Part shown: positions 1 to 14,491 of the stretch, in pieces
Numbering within the stretch: position 1 is the first letter of the stretch
Layout of the letters: each line of letters starts with the position of its first letter
Virus genome (UHGV): UHGV-0168752
Direction: 5' to 3' (one strand)
DNA: 14,491 nucleotides
Origin: a virus
Translations under genes and position numbers: made by a program
Notes under the pieces: model-generated
The model's input: only the letters and a program-made list of their open reading frames with translations
Told to the model about the DNA's origin: nothing
Databases searched by the model: none

Positions 1-5
1 ATTTA

Positions 6-25
6 GTTAAGTGAGAATTCTCACA
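6..25 (-). promoter_or_regulatory. Operator-like palindromic element, copy 1 (GTTAAGTGAGAATTCTCACA)
   Basis: Perfect 14-bp palindrome GTGAGAATTCTCAC at 11-24. A near-identical 20-mer recurs at 5999-6018. Lies in the intergenic region downstream of the CDS ending at 61, i.e. upstream of whatever minus-strand gene lies beyond the window start. Confidence 0.4.
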
Positions 26-60
26 TAGATGAAATATATCTTAAATTTTTTAGACAATTA

Positions 61-369
61 TCAGCATAGCGCGATGTTAACCGACTTACCAGGTAGCGGG
101 AAATGCTGTAGTTCTATTGACTGAAGTTTCCTGTCAATAGTCAGTATTTCATCAACGTTGGGCGTAAGGCGGAATACAGCGCGAGGTAGCGTGAAGGACA
201 CGTTCGTCGAGCAGTTATTTAACAGTAACTGATCCTGAGAATAATCAATCTCTACCACTCTCGCAATTACCCAACGATCGCGAATCTCGCCACCTAGAGG
301 AGCAGCTAATGCACGTTGCAAGCGCTGTAAATTAGTCCCATCAGTATTAGTGTGGTTTTGGCTCGACAT
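61..369 (-). CDS. Hypothetical protein (about 102 aa from the ATG)
   Basis: ORF track 61..381 begins at a TTG; the first ATG is at 369..367 (MSSQNHTNTDG...). Overlaps the upstream CDS end by about 23 nt. No recognisable motif. Confidence 0.5.
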   Translation of the reverse strand: MSSQNHTNTDGTNLQRLQRALAAPLGGEIRDRWVIARVVEIDYSQDQLLLNNCSTNVSFTLPRAVFRLTPNVDEILTIDRKLQSIELQHFPLPGKSVNIALC

Positions 370-682
370 AAGTTTCCCCAAACACGTATACGTGTTCAGT
401 CACGTATGCAGATTCTGTTTCAAGCGTCGGTTTAGCGACACGCCACTTCCATGCGCCGGTTTCAGGATCTTGCCAGGACAACAAAAGAGAACCCTCGCAA
501 ATTTCAGAGGTATCGACCTCAGGGTGGAACAACATGAATTCGTTTTCGTTGTCGTCCACTACGACGAATTGGCCTTCTTCTACCCTTTCGAACTTAGCAA
601 CACCTACTACAGTTGCTGGTTCTCCAACAGTAAACACCATTTCTTGTTTCGGTAAATCACGGTGAATCGCACTTAACCACAT
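347..682 (-). CDS. Hypothetical protein (111 aa)
   Basis: ATG at 682..680 preceded by GAGGA about 9 nt upstream on the minus strand; first gene after the terminator at 738-776. No recognisable motif. Confidence 0.6.
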   Translation of the reverse strand: MWLSAIHRDLPKQEMVFTVGEPATVVGVAKFERVEEGQFVVVDDNENEFMLFHPEVDTSEICEGSLLLSWQDPETGAWKWRVAKPTLETESAYVTEHVYVFGETYVEPKPH

Positions 683-737
683 TTAAGCTGTTCCTCAATT
701 AATTTTGTTTACGTGTGCATAATTAGACACGAAAGCG

Positions 738-776
738 TAAAAATAAATTCACCCTCTCCCCAAGCGGAGAGAGGGA
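738..776 (-). terminator. Rho-independent terminator
   Basis: GC-rich hairpin (plus-strand arms 752-761 and 766-775, loop AAGC, one mismatch) followed on the minus strand by TGAATTTATTTTTAC; sits just 3-prime of the CDS ending at 781. Confidence 0.65.
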
Positions 777-780
777 AAGT

Positions 781-1287
781 TTACAGTACGTTTTCGTCGC
801 GATCGTCTACTAAAATAGATGTAATTACATAACGTGCTAAACGACTGCGTGCTTCTTCAGTTTCTTCTTCAGAAGGTAGCTGCTCACCTGCGGGTGCGCA
901 CAAGGTTAGTCCAGATTCACGAAGTTGTTCGGTATAGTCTTCCACAGCTGTGTCGAACGTACCACGGATACCTGCTACTGCGTCCATAATTTCGTCATTC
1001 GGAATAATGGATTCTTTTAGCACAGCGTGCGCGTCTGTAGGCTCCACCATTTGTAGATTCTGTTCTACCAGCATCGCCTGTTTCGCTAGGCTGTCGGTGA
1101 TAAAGCAAGACAGAATCTTTTCGAAATCGTCTAACGAGAATTCGGTGTCTTCAGATGCACCGGTAATCAATTGCCCGTAGCGATTAAAGAATTCTTTACA
1201 ACGTGTTTCGTAGTCAGCTTCTAAGTCGCGAACGCCGAGATCAAAATCGTGCTGCTCCAGCTGATTAAAATCCAGAGTCTCTTTCAT
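781..1287 (-). CDS. Strongly acidic hypothetical protein (168 aa); candidate DNA-mimic or anti-restriction protein
   Basis: ATG at 1287 with GGAGA upstream. By my count about 39 Asp/Glu versus about 14 Lys/Arg, including a PSEEETEEA cluster. Last gene of the Dam operon. Confidence 0.7.
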   Translation of the reverse strand: MKETLDFNQLEQHDFDLGVRDLEADYETRCKEFFNRYGQLITGASEDTEFSLDDFEKILSCFITDSLAKQAMLVEQNLQMVEPTDAHAVLKESIIPNDEIMDAVAGIRGTFDTAVEDYTEQLRESGLTLCAPAGEQLPSEEETEEARSRLARYVITSILVDDRDENVL

Positions 1288-1325
1288 CTCTAAGTCTCCA
1301 GTTAAGAGGTCATATTACCTGCTGG

Positions 1326-1553
1326 CTAGAGTGCCAACGTTAACCCGGTATGGGTTTGTACTGAACCAACACCATCGCGTGCTTTTGCTTTGGCGATGAG
1401 TTTGTCAATCACGCGCTGATGGCTACGAGTAATGACTTTACCTGGATAACCGATAATTAGCGCGTTCTCATCATTAATTACCGCCGAGAATTCATTATCG
1501 CCTGCGACGTAAGTAATCTTTTTGTCTTTGGTTACAATACGTTTGATTTCCAT
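1326..1553 (-). CDS. Small hypothetical protein (75 aa)
   Basis: ATG at 1553 with AAGGA 6 nt upstream; starts immediately after the stop of the preceding gene. Confidence 0.6.
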   Translation of the reverse strand: MEIKRIVTKDKKITYVAGDNEFSAVINDENALIIGYPGKVITRSHQRVIDKLIAKAKARDGVGSVQTHTGLTLAL

Positions 1554-1562
1554 TCATTGTCC

Positions 1563-2336
1563 TTAAAAGATAAAATGGCCAGTTAGTGCTTCTACTTCAA
1601 CACCAGACATTGCTGGAGGTGCTGAGTATGGAAAAGTAAGACGCACGGTTGCACCCTTTAAATACGCAATACGGTAGTATGTGGTCAAGAGCGCAATCCC
1701 GTAAGTACAGTCGTTATAGAAGAAACCTTCGGTTGCAAACGTCTTTTCGTTGATTTTCGAATAGACTAAGATACCTTCAACTTTACCGTCTTTACGACAG
1801 CACAGCCCTTCAGCAGCCCCAATAGCTAACAATCCCAGGCAGTATGTATCCAAACTGACATTAACCACCTTAGGAATCGTAAACGTTTCTTCTAACGTTA
1901 GAGATTCAATATCAACTACATCAGGTAAATCGGTGCGAACTTCGGGTTCTTCAGTAAACGTCAGGTCATAGTCGATGGACGTCGGCTGCATACCCAAATA
2001 CGCCATTAACTGGTCACGACGTTTTAGGTCGTTGGCAGGGTATGTGACATCAAACATCTCCACTTTTAACAAACGTTTGAGTTGTGCGAAATTAATTTTC
2101 TTCTTCGCAAACACAACGATTGCCGACATGTAGAAAAACTTACCATCGGCACGACCGGAGAAGATTCCTTGTAGCTGATTCGTGTTCGAAAGAATGATAA
2201 AGGTCGGATCTTCAGACTCGCGAATGACGTCCTTTTCCAATAACCCTTTCCGTACACGGGTTAGTGAAACCATTTTCCCGTCCACGCCAATTGCTAAATG
2301 GTCATTACGATAATCGTGGATATCCACTATGCGCAT
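1563..2336 (-). CDS. Hypothetical protein (257 aa), translationally coupled to Dam
   Basis: ATG overlaps the Dam stop (TAATG at 2334-2338). No motif I recognise. Confidence 0.7.
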   Translation of the reverse strand: MRIVDIHDYRNDHLAIGVDGKMVSLTRVRKGLLEKDVIRESEDPTFIILSNTNQLQGIFSGRADGKFFYMSAIVVFAKKKINFAQLKRLLKVEMFDVTYPANDLKRRDQLMAYLGMQPTSIDYDLTFTEEPEVRTDLPDVVDIESLTLEETFTIPKVVNVSLDTYCLGLLAIGAAEGLCCRKDGKVEGILVYSKINEKTFATEGFFYNDCTYGIALLTTYYRIAYLKGATVRLTFPYSAPPAMSGVEVEALTGHFIF

Positions 2337-3151
2337 TAGAGCACTCCCAGTAATTCAGTCACTGTTTTCCGAGCGGCACCGGACGCACCCATATAGCGAC
2401 CGACCTCAATACTACGCCACTCAAAACCGTAATAAATTTCTCGGGTGAGTAGGGTGTCTGCATTTGACAACACGACACTGTTGCCACGTTCCACCTGCTG
2501 CTGTAGTAACTTGGCTAATTCTCGATGATCCGTTTGTGAGAATTCTTTACGGTGGTATTGCGCATGTTTCGCGGTATCCGATAACGGAATATAAGGAGGA
2601 TCGGCATAAATCACGGCATCCTCAGGTGTCCGCGCCAGTACGGAACGAAAGTCTTCACAAACGATTTCCAAATAATCCACTTCTGCGCAACGTTTAGCCC
2701 AGTCTCGAATTTCTTCTAACGGGTAATAAACACCGTTCGGGTAACGTCCAAACGGAACATTGAACCCACCACTACTGTTATAGCGACACATCCCGTTATA
2801 GCCGTGACGCATTAAGTATAAAAACATCGCTGCCCGTTCAACGTCTGACATCGATTTACCGCTATTAAACAGCTCACGACGTTCCATATACCTTACTGTA
2901 GTATTACCGTCTAAGAACAATGGCTGAGACGCAGCAATCAGTTCTTCAGGTTGTTCACGTGCAACACAGAGTAAGCGTATCAGATCAGGGTTAGAATCTG
3001 ATAGAATATACCGGCTATAATTCGTATTTAGGAAGACAGAGCCTGCACCCACAAACGGTTCTACAAACGTTGTACGTTTAGGTAAGACCTTTTGTAATTC
3101 TCCTAAAACACGGGTTTTCCCACCCATCCATTTAATAATCGGTTTCCGCAT
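2336..3151 (-). CDS. dam: DNA adenine (N6) methyltransferase, Dam family
   Basis: Translation has KWMGGK near the N-terminus, FVEPFVGAGSVF (SAM-binding FxGxG), NGMCRYNSSGGFNVPFGRY and the catalytic DPPY, colinear with E. coli Dam and T4 Dam as I recall them. Confidence 0.9.
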   Translation of the reverse strand: MRKPIIKWMGGKTRVLGELQKVLPKRTTFVEPFVGAGSVFLNTNYSRYILSDSNPDLIRLLCVAREQPEELIAASQPLFLDGNTTVRYMERRELFNSGKSMSDVERAAMFLYLMRHGYNGMCRYNSSGGFNVPFGRYPNGVYYPLEEIRDWAKRCAEVDYLEIVCEDFRSVLARTPEDAVIYADPPYIPLSDTAKHAQYHRKEFSQTDHRELAKLLQQQVERGNSVVLSNADTLLTREIYYGFEWRSIEVGRYMGASGAARKTVTELLGVL

Positions 3152-4130
3152 TATATCCGCCTTGTAACGATGACACTTCGTCGCCTAACACTAATTCGAC
3201 CCGGTTTTTCCGACGCTCCCAGCTGACAACATCATCGTCGCGTACTAAAACAAATTCGTATTCGTAGGGACGGAATTTAAACAAATCTACGGCTAGGTGT
3301 CTAAATGCAGGGTTGTTATTGTAACACCCTATTTCTAATGGCGCTGCCGTGGTCGATGCAATCTGTAAAGCACGATACAACAAGGCACGGCCAATCCCAC
3401 GACCACGATGCGTTTCACTTACCGCAATGGCTTTTAATTCACACTCGTTGAGATTACGCAATTTGACTTGAACCACACCCACAACGTCATTACCGTCCAT
3501 CCAAACGTAGGTGTGGTGATTGATGTGACGTACTAACTCCACCAACGTTTCGACTTGTGGCATGATTTGCCGAGAACGGCCTACAGGGTCAGCATTGATG
3601 TTTTCAACAACACTGGTACCCAACAACAGCATAAGTTGTTCACGTTGTGCAGCGTTTAAATCTTTATAAAGATCGCCAGAAATATTCTTCACGTTCGTCG
3701 GTAATGTAACATCCAATAACGTACGTGTCCCTAAGCGGTATGAGGTCTGTGTATGCCTAAATCCGAAGTCATTAAGCTCAGCAATTTCTTCCACGCCTCT
3801 GGCAATTCGATTGAGGTATGTAAAACCAGTATAGTCCAGTACCAGTAAAAGGTTCAGTTTGTTCAAACACCCTGGTACAATTTCGTGCATATACAAGCAG
3901 TGTAACGTTGGGTCACCGTAAATATGTTTTGTGATGATAAACCCTTGAATCGTTTTTCCTTTTTGTAAAGAGAACGTATTCAGCTCAGTATTACACAACG
4001 CCTCGCGAATCACAGCACCGTTAGGACCCGTTAAACATGCCTGAAGTTGGGGATTACGAATATCTCTTCGTGCTAAGCGTCCTACGGTTAAATCCAGAGC
4101 GGTACGTTCTATAGTCTTCCTAAAAGCCAT
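3132..4130 (-). CDS. GNAT-domain acyltransferase-like protein with N-terminal extension (332 aa; possibly tandem GNAT)
   Basis: C-terminal region contains VSETHRGRGIGRALLYRA, matching the GNAT motif A signature (R-x-x-G-x-G/A). AAGGAG 8 nt upstream of the ATG at 4130. The 3-prime end overlaps the Dam start by 20 nt. Confidence 0.7.
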   Translation of the reverse strand: MAFRKTIERTALDLTVGRLARRDIRNPQLQACLTGPNGAVIREALCNTELNTFSLQKGKTIQGFIITKHIYGDPTLHCLYMHEIVPGCLNKLNLLLVLDYTGFTYLNRIARGVEEIAELNDFGFRHTQTSYRLGTRTLLDVTLPTNVKNISGDLYKDLNAAQREQLMLLLGTSVVENINADPVGRSRQIMPQVETLVELVRHINHHTYVWMDGNDVVGVVQVKLRNLNECELKAIAVSETHRGRGIGRALLYRALQIASTTAAPLEIGCYNNNPAFRHLAVDLFKFRPYEYEFVLVRDDDVVSWERRKNRVELVLGDEVSSLQGGYNAETDY

Positions 4131-4180
4131 GTTAATTGCTCCTTAAAAGGTCGTCTCAAAACAATACGCTAAAGCTGTAA

Positions 4181-4216
4181 AAACAAAAAAAAAGAAAGGG
4201 GAACCGAAGTTCCCCC
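4181..4216 (-). terminator. Rho-independent terminator
   Basis: Perfect 7-bp stem GGGGAAC/GTTCCCC (4198-4204 and 4209-4215) with a 4-nt loop (TTCG on the minus strand), followed on the minus strand by TTTCTTTTTTTTTGTTTTT. Confidence 0.8.
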
Positions 4217-4223
4217 GTAATAG

Positions 4224-4811
4224 TTAACCGAACAGTTTACGATGTAAATGGGGGAACCAATTACATATTTCCTTTTTGTAGTTCCGTCCGGTTTTATCCC
4301 AATCGTCTTCTTTGAACAGACTTTCGTCAAAATTCAGATACGATTCGAATTGTTTGTTGAGCATGGTATGTTGCTCTGGAAAACGTACCAGAATTACCGC
4401 GTCCTTTTTATCGAGTGTTTGGACATTCAGAACTTCTGGCGTAAACTTGAAGTAAGCGTTCGCGTCCACCCGTAACCAGTTGGCAAGGCAGATAACATCT
4501 TGTTCGAGCTGGTTCAATATTTCGAACACGTCAGAATCGGGCGCTTCCATGGTTAAACGTAGTAGTAACTTTAACAAATCGTTACCGCTCAGCAAGTCGT
4601 AATGATGTCGTCCTGAGGTGAGACTCACGAGTTCGCCTTCCCATAGCCAGGCCATAAAGTGACAGTTGAAGGGACGGTAGTGATAAATCCGACACTCGCT
4701 AAAAGGACTCAATTTAAGGGTGAGAATAGGGTCTGCTAAAGCGTGTAGCGTGACTGGTGGGAAGATCGCTTTAGGAAACGTAGTGTCTTCTGGTAAGGTT
4801 TCTGTTGCCAT
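4224..4811 (-). CDS. Hypothetical protein (195 aa), co-transcribed with the XRE regulator
   Basis: ATG at 4811 with AGGAG 9 nt upstream. No recognisable motif. Confidence 0.7.
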   Translation of the reverse strand: MATETLPEDTTFPKAIFPPVTLHALADPILTLKLSPFSECRIYHYRPFNCHFMAWLWEGELVSLTSGRHHYDLLSGNDLLKLLLRLTMEAPDSDVFEILNQLEQDVICLANWLRVDANAYFKFTPEVLNVQTLDKKDAVILVRFPEQHTMLNKQFESYLNFDESLFKEDDWDKTGRNYKKEICNWFPHLHRKLFG

Positions 4812-4881
4812 GATTTTTACTCCTGAAATGGTTTGTCGAAAGCACCGAAAAGTTTGGTAACGGGCTGATCTCCAATTAATC

Positions 4882-5232
4882 TTAGAAGCCCAGTGTTTGT
4901 TTAAATACGTTGCTGAGGTAGCTTGGTTTTGTCGCCTTGACGTAATCTAACGCGGACTCTGCGGTTACCTTAACCACACAACGTCCGTTAGTGGACTCAA
5001 ACGTCACGCTGTATTTCAAACGTAACATGTCGGCAACTTTCATTATCATTCCCAGACTTAAACGTTCTGGATGTTCGTTCGCAATTGAAGAAATCACCGA
5101 TGGGGAAACTTTCGCAAGCTGGGCCAATTCACGTTGAGTGATTTTACCACGTTGTAAATGGCGAATGATATAACCCAGACGAATAACTAACTGCTGTTTT
5201 GCAATAGTGACGGTGTTATGTTTGTAAGCCAT
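4882..5232 (-). CDS. XRE-family helix-turn-helix transcriptional regulator (116 aa)
   Basis: N-terminal ITQRELAQLAKVSPSVISSIAN fits the Cro/CI-type HTH pattern. AGGAG 8 nt upstream of the ATG at 5232. Confidence 0.7.
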   Translation of the reverse strand: MAYKHNTVTIAKQQLVIRLGYIIRHLQRGKITQRELAQLAKVSPSVISSIANEHPERLSLGMIMKVADMLRLKYSVTFESTNGRCVVKVTAESALDYVKATKPSYLSNVFKQTLGF

Positions 5233-5304
5233 GGTTATACTCCTTTAGGTTAACAAGTCGGTGTAAAGAGTTAATCGCAACTCTCACTTAAGTAATATCT
5301 ATCT

Positions 5305-5344
5305 GTGAAAAAATAAAATACAGGTACCACCTAACGGTGGTACC
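5305..5344 (-). terminator. Rho-independent terminator
   Basis: Perfect 9-bp stem GGTACCACC/GGTGGTACC (5323-5331 and 5336-5344), 4-nt loop, followed on the minus strand by TGTATTTTATTTTTTCAC. Confidence 0.8.
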
Positions 5345-5351
5345 TAAGCAG

Positions 5352-5975
5352 TTAGTTTGCTAAAATGTGTGTAACAATCTCTGCCGCTTTTAAACGGTAG
5401 TCATCGTTCTGCGTTACACGTTGTAAAGTGTGCAGGCAGCCTCCTTCCGTCAAGATATGGTGTGCGAAACGGTAGTAGTCACGCAACGCGTCCCAACTGG
5501 TTTCGTCTTTCAGGTACTTAGCCGTAAGTACCTCATCGTCCCAATTCTTACCTTGTTCTTCTACCCGTTTCTTAAAACGCTCCGTAGCCGTTGTATAGTC
5601 AACATCCAACCACACGTAGAGATCCGGCGCGTGGTAGTGACGAGTTACCTTGCGTCGGAACACCGCATCCTTCCCATCGGTACCTTGGTAAACGATCGTC
5701 GACGGGCAAAAACGGTCAAAGATAACCACGTCGTAGTCGTCAACCACGTTATCCATTGTGTAAATAAAATCCAGACACATCGCGTCGGCTATTCTGTCTT
5801 TTGAAGCAGCCTGCACCACCAGACTGCGTGCGCGAATACCCGCGTCCGTTTCAGACGTTGGATGATTTCGAACGCAGACTTTTAATCCTAGCGATTCCAA
5901 CATCGCTTTTACCATTTTACACAATGTAGATTTCCCAGAAAAGTCAGGGCCATCAATAGACACGGTCTTAAGCAT
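5352..5975 (-). CDS. tmk: Thymidylate kinase-like dNMP kinase (207 aa)
   Basis: P-loop IDGPDFSGKST, DRF motif in VIFDRFCPSTIVYQG (compare the E. coli Tmk DRH...QAYQG region) and a LID-like region DLYVWLDVDY...ERFKKR. Confidence 0.8.
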   Translation of the reverse strand: MLKTVSIDGPDFSGKSTLCKMVKAMLESLGLKVCVRNHPTSETDAGIRARSLVVQAASKDRIADAMCLDFIYTMDNVVDDYDVVIFDRFCPSTIVYQGTDGKDAVFRRKVTRHYHAPDLYVWLDVDYTTATERFKKRVEEQGKNWDDEVLTAKYLKDETSWDALRDYYRFAHHILTEGGCLHTLQRVTQNDDYRLKAAEIVTHILAN

Positions 5976-5998
5976 TATTGTTTTACCTTTTTACGCAC

Positions 5999-6018
5999 GT
6001 TAAGTGAGGATTCTCACA
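5999..6018 (-). promoter_or_regulatory. Operator-like palindromic element, copy 2 (GTTAAGTGAGGATTCTCACA)
   Basis: 19 of 20 identical to copy 1. Lies between the terminator at 6045-6082 and the tmk start at 5975; the upstream flank TATCAT resembles TTTCAT at copy 1 (a possible -10 element). Confidence 0.45.
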
Positions 6019-6044
6019 ATGATAGTATCGGTTGTAATAATTTA

Positions 6045-6082
6045 CGATAAAAAAGAAACCCGCCCCTACCATTCGGTAGGGG
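6045..6082 (-). terminator. Rho-independent terminator
   Basis: Perfect 8-bp stem CCCCTACC/GGTAGGGG (6063-6070 and 6075-6082), 4-nt loop, followed on the minus strand by CGGGTTTCTTTTTTATCG. Confidence 0.8.
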
Positions 6083-6089
6083 TAAGGTT

Positions 6090-9222: not shown

Positions 9223-9244
9223 CCTTTACCCCATTTAAGCTAAA

Positions 9245-9820: not shown

Positions 9821-9848
9821 TTGTCACCTCCATACTGAGGTCGTAAAG

Positions 9849-9894
9849 TGAAAAAAAAAATAAAATAGGAGAGAACCTCAAAAGGTTCTCTCCT
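9849..9894 (-). terminator. Rho-independent terminator
   Basis: 10-11-bp stem GGAGAGAACC/GGTTCTCTCC (9868-9877 and 9884-9893), 6-nt loop, followed on the minus strand by a T tract (plus-strand A run 9849-9866). Confidence 0.85.
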
Positions 9895-9907
9895 AACGTT
9901 ATCGTTA

Positions 9908-12584: not shown

Positions 12585-12624
12585 TGGTAATCTCCTCTTT
12601 AGACTCACACTATGTTTAAAAATT

Positions 12625-12664
12625 GTAAAAATAAAAAGAAGAAACCTCTACCCGAAGGTAGAGG
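12625..12664 (-). terminator. Rho-independent terminator
   Basis: Perfect 8-bp stem CCTCTACC/GGTAGAGG (12645-12652 and 12657-12664), loop TTCG on the minus strand, followed by TTTCTTCTTTTTATTTTTAC. Confidence 0.8.
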
Positions 12665-12670
12665 TTAATG

Positions 12671-13249: not shown

Positions 13250-13893
13250 TAACGTTTCCTCCGACGCCTTCTCCGCCTGGAGGTCTTCGGCGACTTTTGT
13301 TTAGGCGGTAGCAGGCTGTTTAAATTTAACAGATTTACCCTGACGAAAATGTTTCCCACCGCCACGGCATCGATGCTATGCTCGTCTAACGTTGTAATAT
13401 CAAACAAAGCGTGTTCACGATACAGTTTGGTCACGGCCCGAAACATATCGGTTTTATCCGTTCCCTTTGCTTCCACACCAACGAATGATTTTACAATGAT
13501 AGGATTGAAACCGTGTAAGATTTTCTCCGGGTAAATGTCCCACAGGGCACGTCGCAACATCAGCTGTAATTCAACACCTGATTCGTACGCGGAGAGTTTT
13601 GCTCTCCGCATAAACGGGGTTTCTGTTGCAACGAAGGTTGGGCAAGCAATCCGAAGAAATTCACGGTAACAAGCTTCGAGCTTAACGAGTCGATCGTCAC
13701 GTTTACCGACACACTCTGCGAACGCATTTGGATGCGTTGGGTCTAATACATGCATGGTATCAGCCCAAACTACTTCGGCTTGATCGCTGCCGTATTCCCA
13801 ATCCAATACCGCCATACCAAGATGGCTCGTACCGGGGTCTATTGCCGCGATTCTCACCATCTTATCTGGAAGTCTCGGCTCGGGTATCAACAT
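13249..13893 (-). CDS. RuvC-like Holliday junction resolvase with Arg-rich C-terminal tail (214 aa)
   Basis: IAAIDPGTSHLGMAV (compare RuvC ILGIDPGSRVTGYGV), FVATETPFMRR (compare FAIEQVFMAK) and DEHSIDAVAVG (compare DAADALAIA). C-terminus SRRRRRRRKR. Start overlaps the upstream stop (TAATG). Confidence 0.8.
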   Translation of the reverse strand: MLIPEPRLPDKMVRIAAIDPGTSHLGMAVLDWEYGSDQAEVVWADTMHVLDPTHPNAFAECVGKRDDRLVKLEACYREFLRIACPTFVATETPFMRRAKLSAYESGVELQLMLRRALWDIYPEKILHGFNPIIVKSFVGVEAKGTDKTDMFRAVTKLYREHALFDITTLDEHSIDAVAVGNIFVRVNLLNLNSLLPPKQKSPKTSRRRRRRRKR

Positions 13894-14448
13894 TAATTCG
13901 CTGTCCCCAGGAAGAACGGCGCAGGCTGACCGATACGAATGGTCAGTGACAGTTTATCATTCGTCTGCGCCAGGTTAGTAAACATCGAGATGTAATACAG
14001 CGCCTGGACACCAATCGCTTCGGTGTAACTGAACTTAGACCCAGTTGCGGAATCACCCGACGTGACTTGGTCTAACCCGGAGCAGAGTGCCAGTTCGGAG
14101 ATAATCGAACTACGCGGACTACCGCGCATGATACTCGTCACGTTCATGTATTCCTGAACATCAAAATCCGTCCACGGAATCACCAGGTCAGCACCGGATT
14201 CAACATAACGACCATCAGGAATCGCAACGGTACCGTCATCATCATAATCGTAATCCGGCAATACTTTCGGTACCGGGTTCAATTCTGTATCGGTGTACAC
14301 GAAGTCTTCGACGGTCTCAACACCGTTCTCACGTTTGATATCGTAGTCTGACGTTTTAACCGCGCGCATATCGATGCGTTTTAAGTAATACGCCCAGTAT
14401 TCACGCTTGTTAAACGTTTCCAAAGTACGGAAAGCGTAGTTCTTACGC
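13893..14448 (-). CDS. Hypothetical protein, 5-prime truncated (C-terminal about 185 aa only)
   Basis: Open frame runs into the adapter at 14449; the apparent N-terminus MCIRDRR is translated adapter, so the real start lies beyond the contig end. No recognisable motif in the remainder. Confidence 0.6.
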
Positions 14449-14491
14449 CTGTCTCTTATACACATCTGACGCTGCCGACGACTCCTTACGT
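14449..14491. other. Illumina Nextera adapter (sequencing artefact)
   Basis: CTGTCTCTTATACACATCT (Tn5 mosaic end) followed by GACGCTGCCGACGA (reverse complement of TCGTCGGCAGCGTC), then 8 nt CTCCTTAC and GT. From memory the 8-mer is the reverse complement of a standard i5 index and GT begins the P5 complement. Confidence 0.95.

Follow-up and report, generated by a model that had tools for sequence, protein, structure and literature searches.

The repeated element and its genomic setting

The DNA examined here is a 14,491-nt stretch of the virus genome UHGV-0168752 (hereafter, the window), and our subject is a 20-nt element that occurs in it twice, as GTTAAGTGAGAATTCTCACA at 6-25 (copy 1) and as GTTAAGTGAGGATTCTCACA at 5999-6018 (copy 2). 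A first-pass annotation had taken this element for the operator of a dimeric repressor, possibly the XRE protein encoded at 4882-5232. The repeat itself is real: the two copies are identical at 19 of 20 positions (one mismatch), no third match with three or fewer mismatches exists within the window, and the two-match outcome was reached in 0 of 200 dinucleotide shuffles of the window. The core of copy 1 (GTGAGAATTCTCAC, 11-24) is, as had been described, a perfect 14-bp palindrome, and a central change in copy 2 leaves GTGAG/CTCAC arms around a 4-nt centre. The GAATTC (EcoRI site) reported in the core is present in copy 1 but not in copy 2. Because all plausible genes of the window lie on the minus strand, the element is best read in that direction, as TGTGAGAAT(T/C)CTCACTTAAC.

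Copy 2 lies where it had been placed, between a minus-strand intrinsic terminator (6082-6063) and the ATG (5975) of a thymidylate-kinase gene (tmk; Pfam PF02223), from which it is separated by 23 nt. As the terminator closes the upstream transcription unit, the kinase gene needs either its own promoter or read-through. Copy 1 is at the window's edge and yet gene-proximal: in relatives, it is found 20 nt 5' of the ATG of a gene for an 89-amino-acid (89-aa) protein, which lies just beyond the window's left end. The distance from GTGAG to the ATG is 37 nt for copy 1 and 42 nt for copy 2. The features of the two sites are as follows.

17..52, minus strand: copy 1 promoter-like block TAAAAAATTTAAGATATATTTCATCTATGTGAGAAT, which matches the SPN3US-type motif described below over 36 nt and is 100% conserved in four IMG/VR relatives; its final 8 nt form the palindrome's left arm
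11..24, minus strand: copy 1 hairpin GUGAG-AAUU-CUCAC, RNA fold -5.9 kcal/mol, z -3.5
1..10, minus strand: copy 1 leader spacer TTAAC-TAAAT, continuing in relatives as GGAGTAATCTAAAATG (Shine-Dalgarno sequence and start of the 89-aa gene, outside the window)
6063..6082, minus strand: intrinsic terminator closing the upstream transcription unit
6010..6045, minus strand: copy 2 upstream block GTAAATTATTACAACCGATACTATCATTGTGAGAAT, in the same register as the copy 1 block; a weak, degenerate match to the promoter motif
6004..6017, minus strand: copy 2 hairpin GUGAG-AAUC-CUCAC, fold -5.9 kcal/mol, equal to copy 1; the sole difference between the copies is in the loop
5976..6003, minus strand: copy 2 leader TTAACGTGCGTAAAAAGGTAAAACAATA, running to the thymidylate-kinase ATG

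An independent public assembly (L126 15975; an ENA scaffold of 18.5 kb) breaks off at the very base with which the window begins, 5 nt beyond the palindrome, and a 37-kb Logan contig (L125) continues through that position. The shared contig end may reflect strain variation just downstream or trouble at the palindrome.

At the DNA level, the window matches known phages only at 13304-14447, with 74% identity to the SPN3US/SPFM/phiEaH2 jumbo phages. It is also syntenic with SPN3US at 83-101 kb, where virion proteins, thymidylate kinase, a helix-turn-helix (HTH) protein, a GNAT protein, and an adenine methyltransferase are followed by the homolog of the 89-aa gene. On sequence grounds, the window is derived from an SPN3US-like jumbo phage, near-identical strains of which are present in several public assemblies. 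The closest relatives are four IMG/VR contigs of 150-225 kb (L034, L035, L036, and L037), whose kinases are 80-86% identical to that of the window; about one-third of each related genome (IMGVR_UViG_3300029126_000001, 3300045988_113438, 3300045988_078609, and 3300045988_095954) was read.

We located the orthologs of copy 1 through the 89-aa protein. In all four relatives, copy 1 and ~30 nt upstream of it are unchanged except for a single base in two of the four, and this holds also where a different gene lies upstream. Copy 2 was found only in L035 (one of four), diverged to TGTGAGAGGTTTCACTTAAC, and its hairpin was not found in L034, L036, or L037. The L035 ortholog would read GUGAG-AGGU-UUCAC in RNA, with three loop changes and one C-to-U change that preserves a G-U pair, so that all five pairs are kept. 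A further 12-nt partial match that had been reported inside dam did not hold up. It is identical in L034 and L035 but degraded to AAAGAGTTTTCCCAGG in L037, and matches of at least 12 nt arose in 15 of 500 shuffles; given this frequency and the loss in L037, we take it as chance.

A promoter-like motif family in SPN3US-like phages

The block upstream of copy 1 belongs to a family of sites that is most easily seen in SPN3US. Across the whole SPN3US genome, the motif tCAGATA(G/T)AT(A/G)TTA(C/T) is repeated in 17 exact copies, all on the plus strand. A 36-nt matrix trained on SPN3US sites only, never including the window's lineage, recovers 23 sites at 20 bits or more among 480,754 positions, all on the coding (+) strand. 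All but one of these (22 of 23) lie ~55-165 nt upstream of an annotated start codon, the exception (25215) being inside a gene, and two of them precede RNA-polymerase subunit genes. The SPN3US promoter-like consensus is TAAAAAATTTCAGATAGATATTATCTAAGTGAGAGT (36 nt; tCAGATAnATATTAyyTArGTGAG). When k-mer enrichment in SPN3US was computed against a highest-order Markov model, most of the motif's signal was masked and no more than hints were left. Several "RNA polymerase beta subunit" genes are annotated in SPN3US; the 14.5-kb window itself holds no polymerase gene, and its place in the clade is judged from synteny.

The family consensus, aAAAAnTTTCAGATAnATATTAyyTArGTGAG, is matched at copy 1 by AAGATATATTTCATCTA. 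Since GTGAGA is part of the motif consensus, the palindrome's left arm is nothing other than the promoter motif's conserved downstream end. Three sites in the window were scored with the SPN3US matrix, and the strongest of them has a leader hairpin of its own.

5315-5280, minus strand: region upstream of the XRE gene, 40.6 bits
52-17, minus strand: copy 1, 30.2 bits
6010..6045, minus strand: copy 2 in the same register, 0.8 bits (upstream half -5.0, downstream half +5.8)
5280..5315, minus strand: XRE-gene promoter TATTTTTTCACAGATAGATATTACTTAAGTGAGAGT, covariance-model score 56.8 bits (E = 8e-8)
5266..5285, minus strand: XRE-gene leader hairpin GAGAGUUG-CGAU-UAACUCUU, RNA fold, with arms that covary in orthologs

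As context for the 0.8 bits of copy 2, just 89 of the 480,754 SPN3US positions score 0 or more. Membership in the promoter family is strong for copy 1 and weak for copy 2.

This family also accounts for two further observations of the first-pass annotation. The "-10-like" T(A/T)TCAT hexamers beside both copies are present, although their distance from the palindrome is unequal (3 nt in copy 1 and 0 nt in copy 2), and they fall in the ATTA(C/T)C portion of the phage promoter motif. The claim that the element is promoter-associated was therefore sound, the adjoining hexamer being part of the promoter-like block. A degenerate copy had likewise been placed at 5281-5292, upstream of the XRE gene. 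As a bare match this is at chance level, since the 10-nt match at 5282-5291 (TTAAGTGAGA, in the opposite orientation) has counterparts of at least 10 nt in 164 of 500 shuffles. Yet it is related in another way: on the minus strand, 5281-5292 reads CTTAAGTGAGAG, the core of the strongest promoter-family site in the window. This XRE promoter is the ortholog of SPN3US site 94228, which stands in front of the HTH gene gp165, and the supposed degenerate copy turns out to be the strongest promoter of the three.

In the relatives L034 (9242-9300) and L037 (9244-9300), the kinase gene is preceded by an additional small gene, which has its own 19-22-bit promoter followed by a GTGAGT-CGGTA-ACTCAC hairpin. 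There, the kinase gene follows directly after the terminator, without a promoter-like block. The pattern GATAyTATCAwTGTGA of the copy 2 block also matches the L034/L037 site at 9242.

Nearly every intrinsic terminator of the window is followed within ~5-25 nt by a T-run (minus-strand stretches 683-780, 4131-4223, 5233-5351, 5976-6089, 9821-9907, and 12609-12670). These T-runs end in TTTTTAC, TTTTCAC, or ATTATTAC, with (G)TGAG ~16-18 nt further in three cases. They may represent a second, weaker promoter type or only the tails of terminators.

A promoter could also be supplied by the host. Under this explanation, an extended -10 element of a sigma-70 promoter (TGTGAGAAT) lies inside the palindrome and the dyad is incidental. 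Both copies do contain TGn-GAGAAT, and copy 1 has TTAAGA 16 nt upstream. However, a sigma-70 scan did not report these sites and found 23 sites against 23.5 expected by chance, the corresponding hexamer of copy 2 in L035 is GAGAGG, and the conserved 36-nt family motif is not sigma-70-like. Moreover, phiKZ, the best-studied relative, is transcribed independently of the host polymerase (PMC7598289). We consider a host promoter of this kind very improbable.

Predicted leader hairpins with variable stems and loops

One subclass of the family has the form ...ATATTAC-YTA(G/A)GTGA, and the ~30 nt that follow fold into a hairpin beginning at GTGAG or GAG. By pooling SPN3US and the window with the hits of an IMG/VR scan for CAGATAKATATTACYT, we obtained 46 distinct CAGATAKATATTACYT...GTGA sites. 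The fold energies of their 34-nt leaders, and those of shuffles and of control matches to the same 16-mer without GTGA, were as follows.

46 family sites: mean -8.2 kcal/mol; 78% at -6 kcal/mol or below
Shuffles of the family sites: mean -3.1 kcal/mol (p = 5e-22); 8% at -6 kcal/mol or below
61 control matches: mean -3.5 kcal/mol (p = 3.5e-11); 23% at -6 kcal/mol or below

In most CAGATAKATATTACYT sites, the gap between the conserved promoter block and the start of the hairpin is 0-4 nt, and the arms of the hairpin differ from site to site (GAGAGTTAA/TTAACTCTT, GAGATTAC/GTAATCTC, GAGATTGC/GTAATCTT, GAGCATTGA/TCAATGCTT, GATAGA/TCTATC, and others). At the XRE gene, for example, the leader arms AGAGTTA/TAACTCT of the window, L034, and L035 are replaced by GAGATTAC/GTAATCTC in L036 and L037 and by GAGAGTT/AACTCTC in SPN3US. 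Promoters orthologous to that of copy 1 precede the same 89-aa gene in SPN3US, STsAS, pEa_SNUABM_29, and Asesino; in Asesino, an Erwinia phage, the promoter is followed by a different hairpin, TGTGAGGAAT-ACTAAC-ATTCCTC (arms GAGGAAT/ATTCCTC).

An alignment of the leaders with MAFFT misplaced the loops, and we turned instead to a covariance model trained on four sites, with which twelve distinct sites were aligned. In the resulting alignment, 87 of 87 cells pair, three of the eight pairs show compensatory changes, and the observed covariation score is reached by 0 of 500 shuffles. Chimeric swaps of 5' and 3' arms were uninformative as a covariation test, GTGAGA being common to every site. Most sites have G-U as the closing pair, a sign of RNA or the sense strand rather than of duplex DNA.

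The loops vary as well. Four further clade promoters scoring 47-48 bits (L174, L205, L219, and L227) combine the arms and 3' flank of copies 1 and 2 with loops of 6-8 nt, in the pattern GGTGAGAG-(6-8 nt)-CTCTCAC-TTAAC(G/T)AAA.

L174: GGTGAGAG-TACAAAAG-CTCTCAC-TTAACGAA
L219: as L174, with the loop TACGAAAG and then TTAACTAAAA
L227: GTGAGAGT-TCAGTT-ACTCTCAC-TTAACGAA
L205: an imperfect version of the same-arm hairpin

By contrast, the window's arms, GTGAG(AG)/(CT)CTCAC, are 2-4 nt apart. Because a dimer needs fixed spacing between its half-sites, identical arms around centres of 2-4 and of 6-8 nt suit a hairpin and not a dimeric HTH operator. The two window copies themselves differ only in the loop, where a hairpin tolerates change. 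The sequence CTCACTTAAC(G/T)AAA, lying 3' of the hairpin, is a recurrent leader sequence of the clade, and this recurrence explains the TTAAC that both copies share beyond the palindrome.

These results bear directly on the operator that had been proposed, according to which the dyad GTGAGA/TCTCAC would be recognized by an HTH protein, for instance the XRE protein, that represses two transcription units. Much at the locus invites that explanation: copy 1 is a perfect dyad and the second copy is nearly the same, the site overlaps the predicted start region of a promoter, an HTH_3 protein of 116 aa is encoded ~650 bp away, and the promoter of its gene contains TTAAGTGAGA. The dyad symmetry, the 14-20 bp length, the overlap with a promoter, and the nearby HTH gene are all shared with operators of the Cro/CI type (XRE family). 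What differs from such operators is that the spacing of the arms varies within the clade, sister promoters carry unrelated dyads at the same position, the site does not form a multi-site array, and it is not conserved together with the HTH gene. All four relatives retain that gene, as does SPN3US (where gp165 is 41% identical), yet copy 2 has been lost in three of the four relatives, and SPN3US has no palindrome within 2 mismatches. Furthermore, G-U pairs would be mismatches in DNA, and GTGAGA is explained by the promoter consensus itself.

A genome-wide search for the motif, which the first-pass annotation had proposed as a check, gave the same picture. In whole-collection IMG/VR scans, the perfect palindrome occurred exactly once in each related genome, and one site per 150-225 kb does not make a regulon. 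Exact IMG/VR scans for the 20-mer, for GTGAG-N4-CTCACTTAAC, and for the 14-bp palindrome yielded, beyond the four relatives, only unrelated contigs at chance level; a variable-gap scan for GTGAG-N{2,14}-CTCACTTAAC gave mostly chance hits among the matches listed, and a distant DNA search of annotated phages with the copy 1 region returned no match. We therefore find no support in the sequence for the XRE protein acting on the 20-mer, and a dimeric-repressor operator appears highly unlikely.

The position of the hairpin, 5-10 nt 5' of the Shine-Dalgarno sequence, could instead indicate an operator of translation or RNA processing, at which a phage RNA-binding protein docks or a nuclease cuts, so that the translation or decay of the two mRNAs is controlled. 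The hairpin with its conserved UUAAC directly before the Shine-Dalgarno sequence would fit such a role, as would the recurrence of CTCACTTAAC(G/T)AAA in the leaders of the clade. On the other hand, there is no known protein partner, the Shine-Dalgarno sequence is not sequestered in the stem, and Rfam 15 gave no family match at gathering score anywhere in the window. Other family members also have different stems, which makes a single sequence-specific binder unlikely, and we regard this role as quite unlikely overall. Two other functions were rejected: the hairpin is not followed by the U-run of a terminator, and its stem is too short for an RNase III site.

One SPN3US locus of the family (165694-165756; L041 44600-44662) has a 47-bit promoter and a leader hairpin, GAGTTAA/TTAACTC, followed directly by an intrinsic terminator (GGCTACCTTCGGGTAGCC and a T-run) with no open reading frame (ORF) between them. 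We regard it, from its sequence, as a candidate small RNA of ~55 nt.

Proposed promoter-leader modules and their relation to known systems

Taken together, we consider it probable (roughly 0.6) that both copies are early-type promoters of the phage's own RNA polymerase, each with a 5' leader stem-loop, and not operators. The AT-rich block of ~30 nt would direct a multisubunit polymerase encoded by the phage, by analogy with phiKZ-type early promoters its virion RNA polymerase. The transcript would begin at GTGAG or just before it; in a phiKZ-type layout, the most conserved part of the motif, AGATAnATATTA, puts the start at about the purine before GTGAG. The first ~16 nt of the mRNA would then fold at once into a 5-bp stem with a 4-nt loop (GUGAG-AAUY-CUCAC), to be followed by the UUAAC spacer, the Shine-Dalgarno sequence, and the start codon. 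Copy 1 would serve the 89-aa gene off the left end and copy 2 the thymidylate-kinase gene. The palindrome may owe its origin to a 3' arm that acquired complementarity to the conserved initial transcribed sequence, and the 5'-terminal stem-loop could protect or tune early mRNA, as known 5' stem-loops do against 5'-end-dependent decay. What the sequences show directly is that the sites belong to the motif family, that hairpins are in excess at this position, that their arms covary, and that identical arms enclose loops of different length; the polymerase, the temporal class, the start site, and the hairpin's role are our inference.

This layout has precedent among jumbo phages. Jumbo phages with RNA polymerases of their own all have a conserved AT-rich motif centred near -10 of their early operons, which, wherever tested, is an early promoter read by the virion polymerase (PMC7598289). 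In phiKZ and 201phi2-1, conservation of the early motifs is seen around -10, -20, and -30, and the motifs stop close to the start site (PMC11512511); phiKZ 5' untranslated regions are typically 31-40 nt long (PMC8244752). The SPN3US-type motif resembles the early promoters of phiKZ, 201phi2-1, and AR9 in being long (~30-36 nt), AT-rich, and placed on the coding strand before non-structural genes. Its core, ATATTAC/ATATTAT, is similar to the phiKZ TATATTAC, it ends near the expected start, its leaders measure ~30-40 nt, and SPN3US encodes the same split beta/beta' polymerase subunits. It differs in its sequence-derived consensus (CAGATAnATATTAy...GTGAG) and in the leader hairpin directly after the motif, which is frequent in the SPN3US-like clade and patchy in phiKZ. 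Of the seven TATATTAC early-promoter sites in phiKZ 1-50000 (L358), four carry a leader hairpin (z -1.5 to -3.7) and the other three do not, a sample too small to extend the pattern beyond the SPN3US-like clade.

Outside the jumbo phages, a parallel to the proposed leader is the E. coli ompA leader, in which a 5'-terminal stem-loop stabilizes the transcript. Stem-loops of this type are likewise short, stable hairpins at or near the 5' end (presumed, in the phage), and structure rather than sequence is conserved. The phage differs in that its 5' arm is constrained by the promoter consensus.

Several points weigh against reading the copies as promoters with leader stem-loops. Literature searches for a published promoter, transcriptome, or start-site map of SPN3US or its clade found nothing specific, so the start site, and with it the 5'-terminal position of the hairpin, is one that we infer. 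The covariation comes from an alignment fitted to a model that favours pairing, and palindromic operators can likewise show covariation between their arms. The hairpin is also small (5 bp, -5.9 kcal/mol). Over all 23 SPN3US sites, hairpin enrichment was not significant (p = 0.08); about half of these sites, those of the ATTATCT subclass, have no clear hairpin, and the enrichment is confined to the ...ATTAC-YTAGGTGA subclass. At the copy 1 ortholog in SPN3US and STsAS, the promoter is present but a hairpin was not found. With so many promoters lacking one, the hairpin is not needed for promoter function, whatever its benefit may be. Finally, copy 2 may not be a promoter of this class at all, given its 0.8 bits, and could instead be a leader hairpin behind another start site, such as the ATTATTAC ~16 nt upstream. 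Its weak match and its instability in evolution would fit a module that has decayed or was copied only in part.

The ATTATCT subclass (SPN3US sites 72673, 184033, and 191591, for example; L040 and L042) is itself partly palindromic (AGATAGATATTATCT) and usually without a leader hairpin. The promoter family may comprise two classes that differ in timing or strength.

The sites that lack a hairpin bear equally on a role in initiation, in which the hairpin would act in the non-template DNA strand or the nascent RNA during promoter recognition or escape, loosely as in phage N4. Its close and regular position after the conserved block, an arm that always includes the conserved GTGAG/GAG, and the placement of all hairpins on the sense strand are consistent with this idea. 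Nevertheless, many sites with the same motif have no hairpin, including the SPN3US and STsAS orthologs of copy 1, and G-U pairs favour RNA over DNA. The virion RNA polymerase of N4 is a single-subunit enzyme whose promoter hairpin lies upstream of the start, with a 3-nt loop, specific bases, and a 5-7-bp stem. Its promoters resemble those described here in having a small hairpin at early promoters and a virion-delivered polymerase (proposed in our case). The SPN3US-like hairpin, however, follows the conserved block and is free in stem sequence, with loops of 3-8 nt that are also free in sequence, and on these grounds we rejected an N4-type hairpin promoter. A looser role in initiation seems to us unlikely.

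At the window's right end, 14449-14491 (CTGTCTCTTATACACATCTGACGCTGCCGACGA...) is an untrimmed Nextera transposase adapter fused to phage DNA, and the apparent ORF start ATGTGTATAAGAGACAG at 14465 is an artefact of this adapter. The adapter is also found at the ends of two related Logan/ENA contigs (L129 and L132), and as a contaminant it probably explains a short match at the end of the Vibrio phage JSF5 record as well.

The promoter type itself is known, as jumbo-phage early promoters have been predicted for each phage of the group, and the window adds members to it. Literature searches found no published account of a covarying hairpin directly after the promoter in the SPN3US-like clade, and we regard the hairpin as a modest new detail rather than a new kind of system. 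It is conceivable, if rather doubtful, that the GTGAG leader stem-loop has a wider meaning, as a class-specific 5' signal of early transcripts that is built into the promoter in SPN3US-like and perhaps other nucleus-forming jumbo phages, which would be new for multisubunit phage polymerases. Such a stem-loop could aid start-site escape by the virion RNA polymerase, shield the transcripts from host or phage ribonucleases during the first minutes after infection, or be recognized by a phage factor.

For the phage, what appeared to be an operator regulon becomes two or three promoter-leader modules. For SPN3US/Seoulvirus-like jumbo phages more generally, the 36-nt consensus and the 23 SPN3US sites amount to a testable promoter model, and the ~46 distinct sites across public jumbo-phage contigs extend it with a covarying leader hairpin directly after the promoter. 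If true, this model would help to annotate early genes and would suggest a simple route by which these phages protect or regulate their early mRNA.

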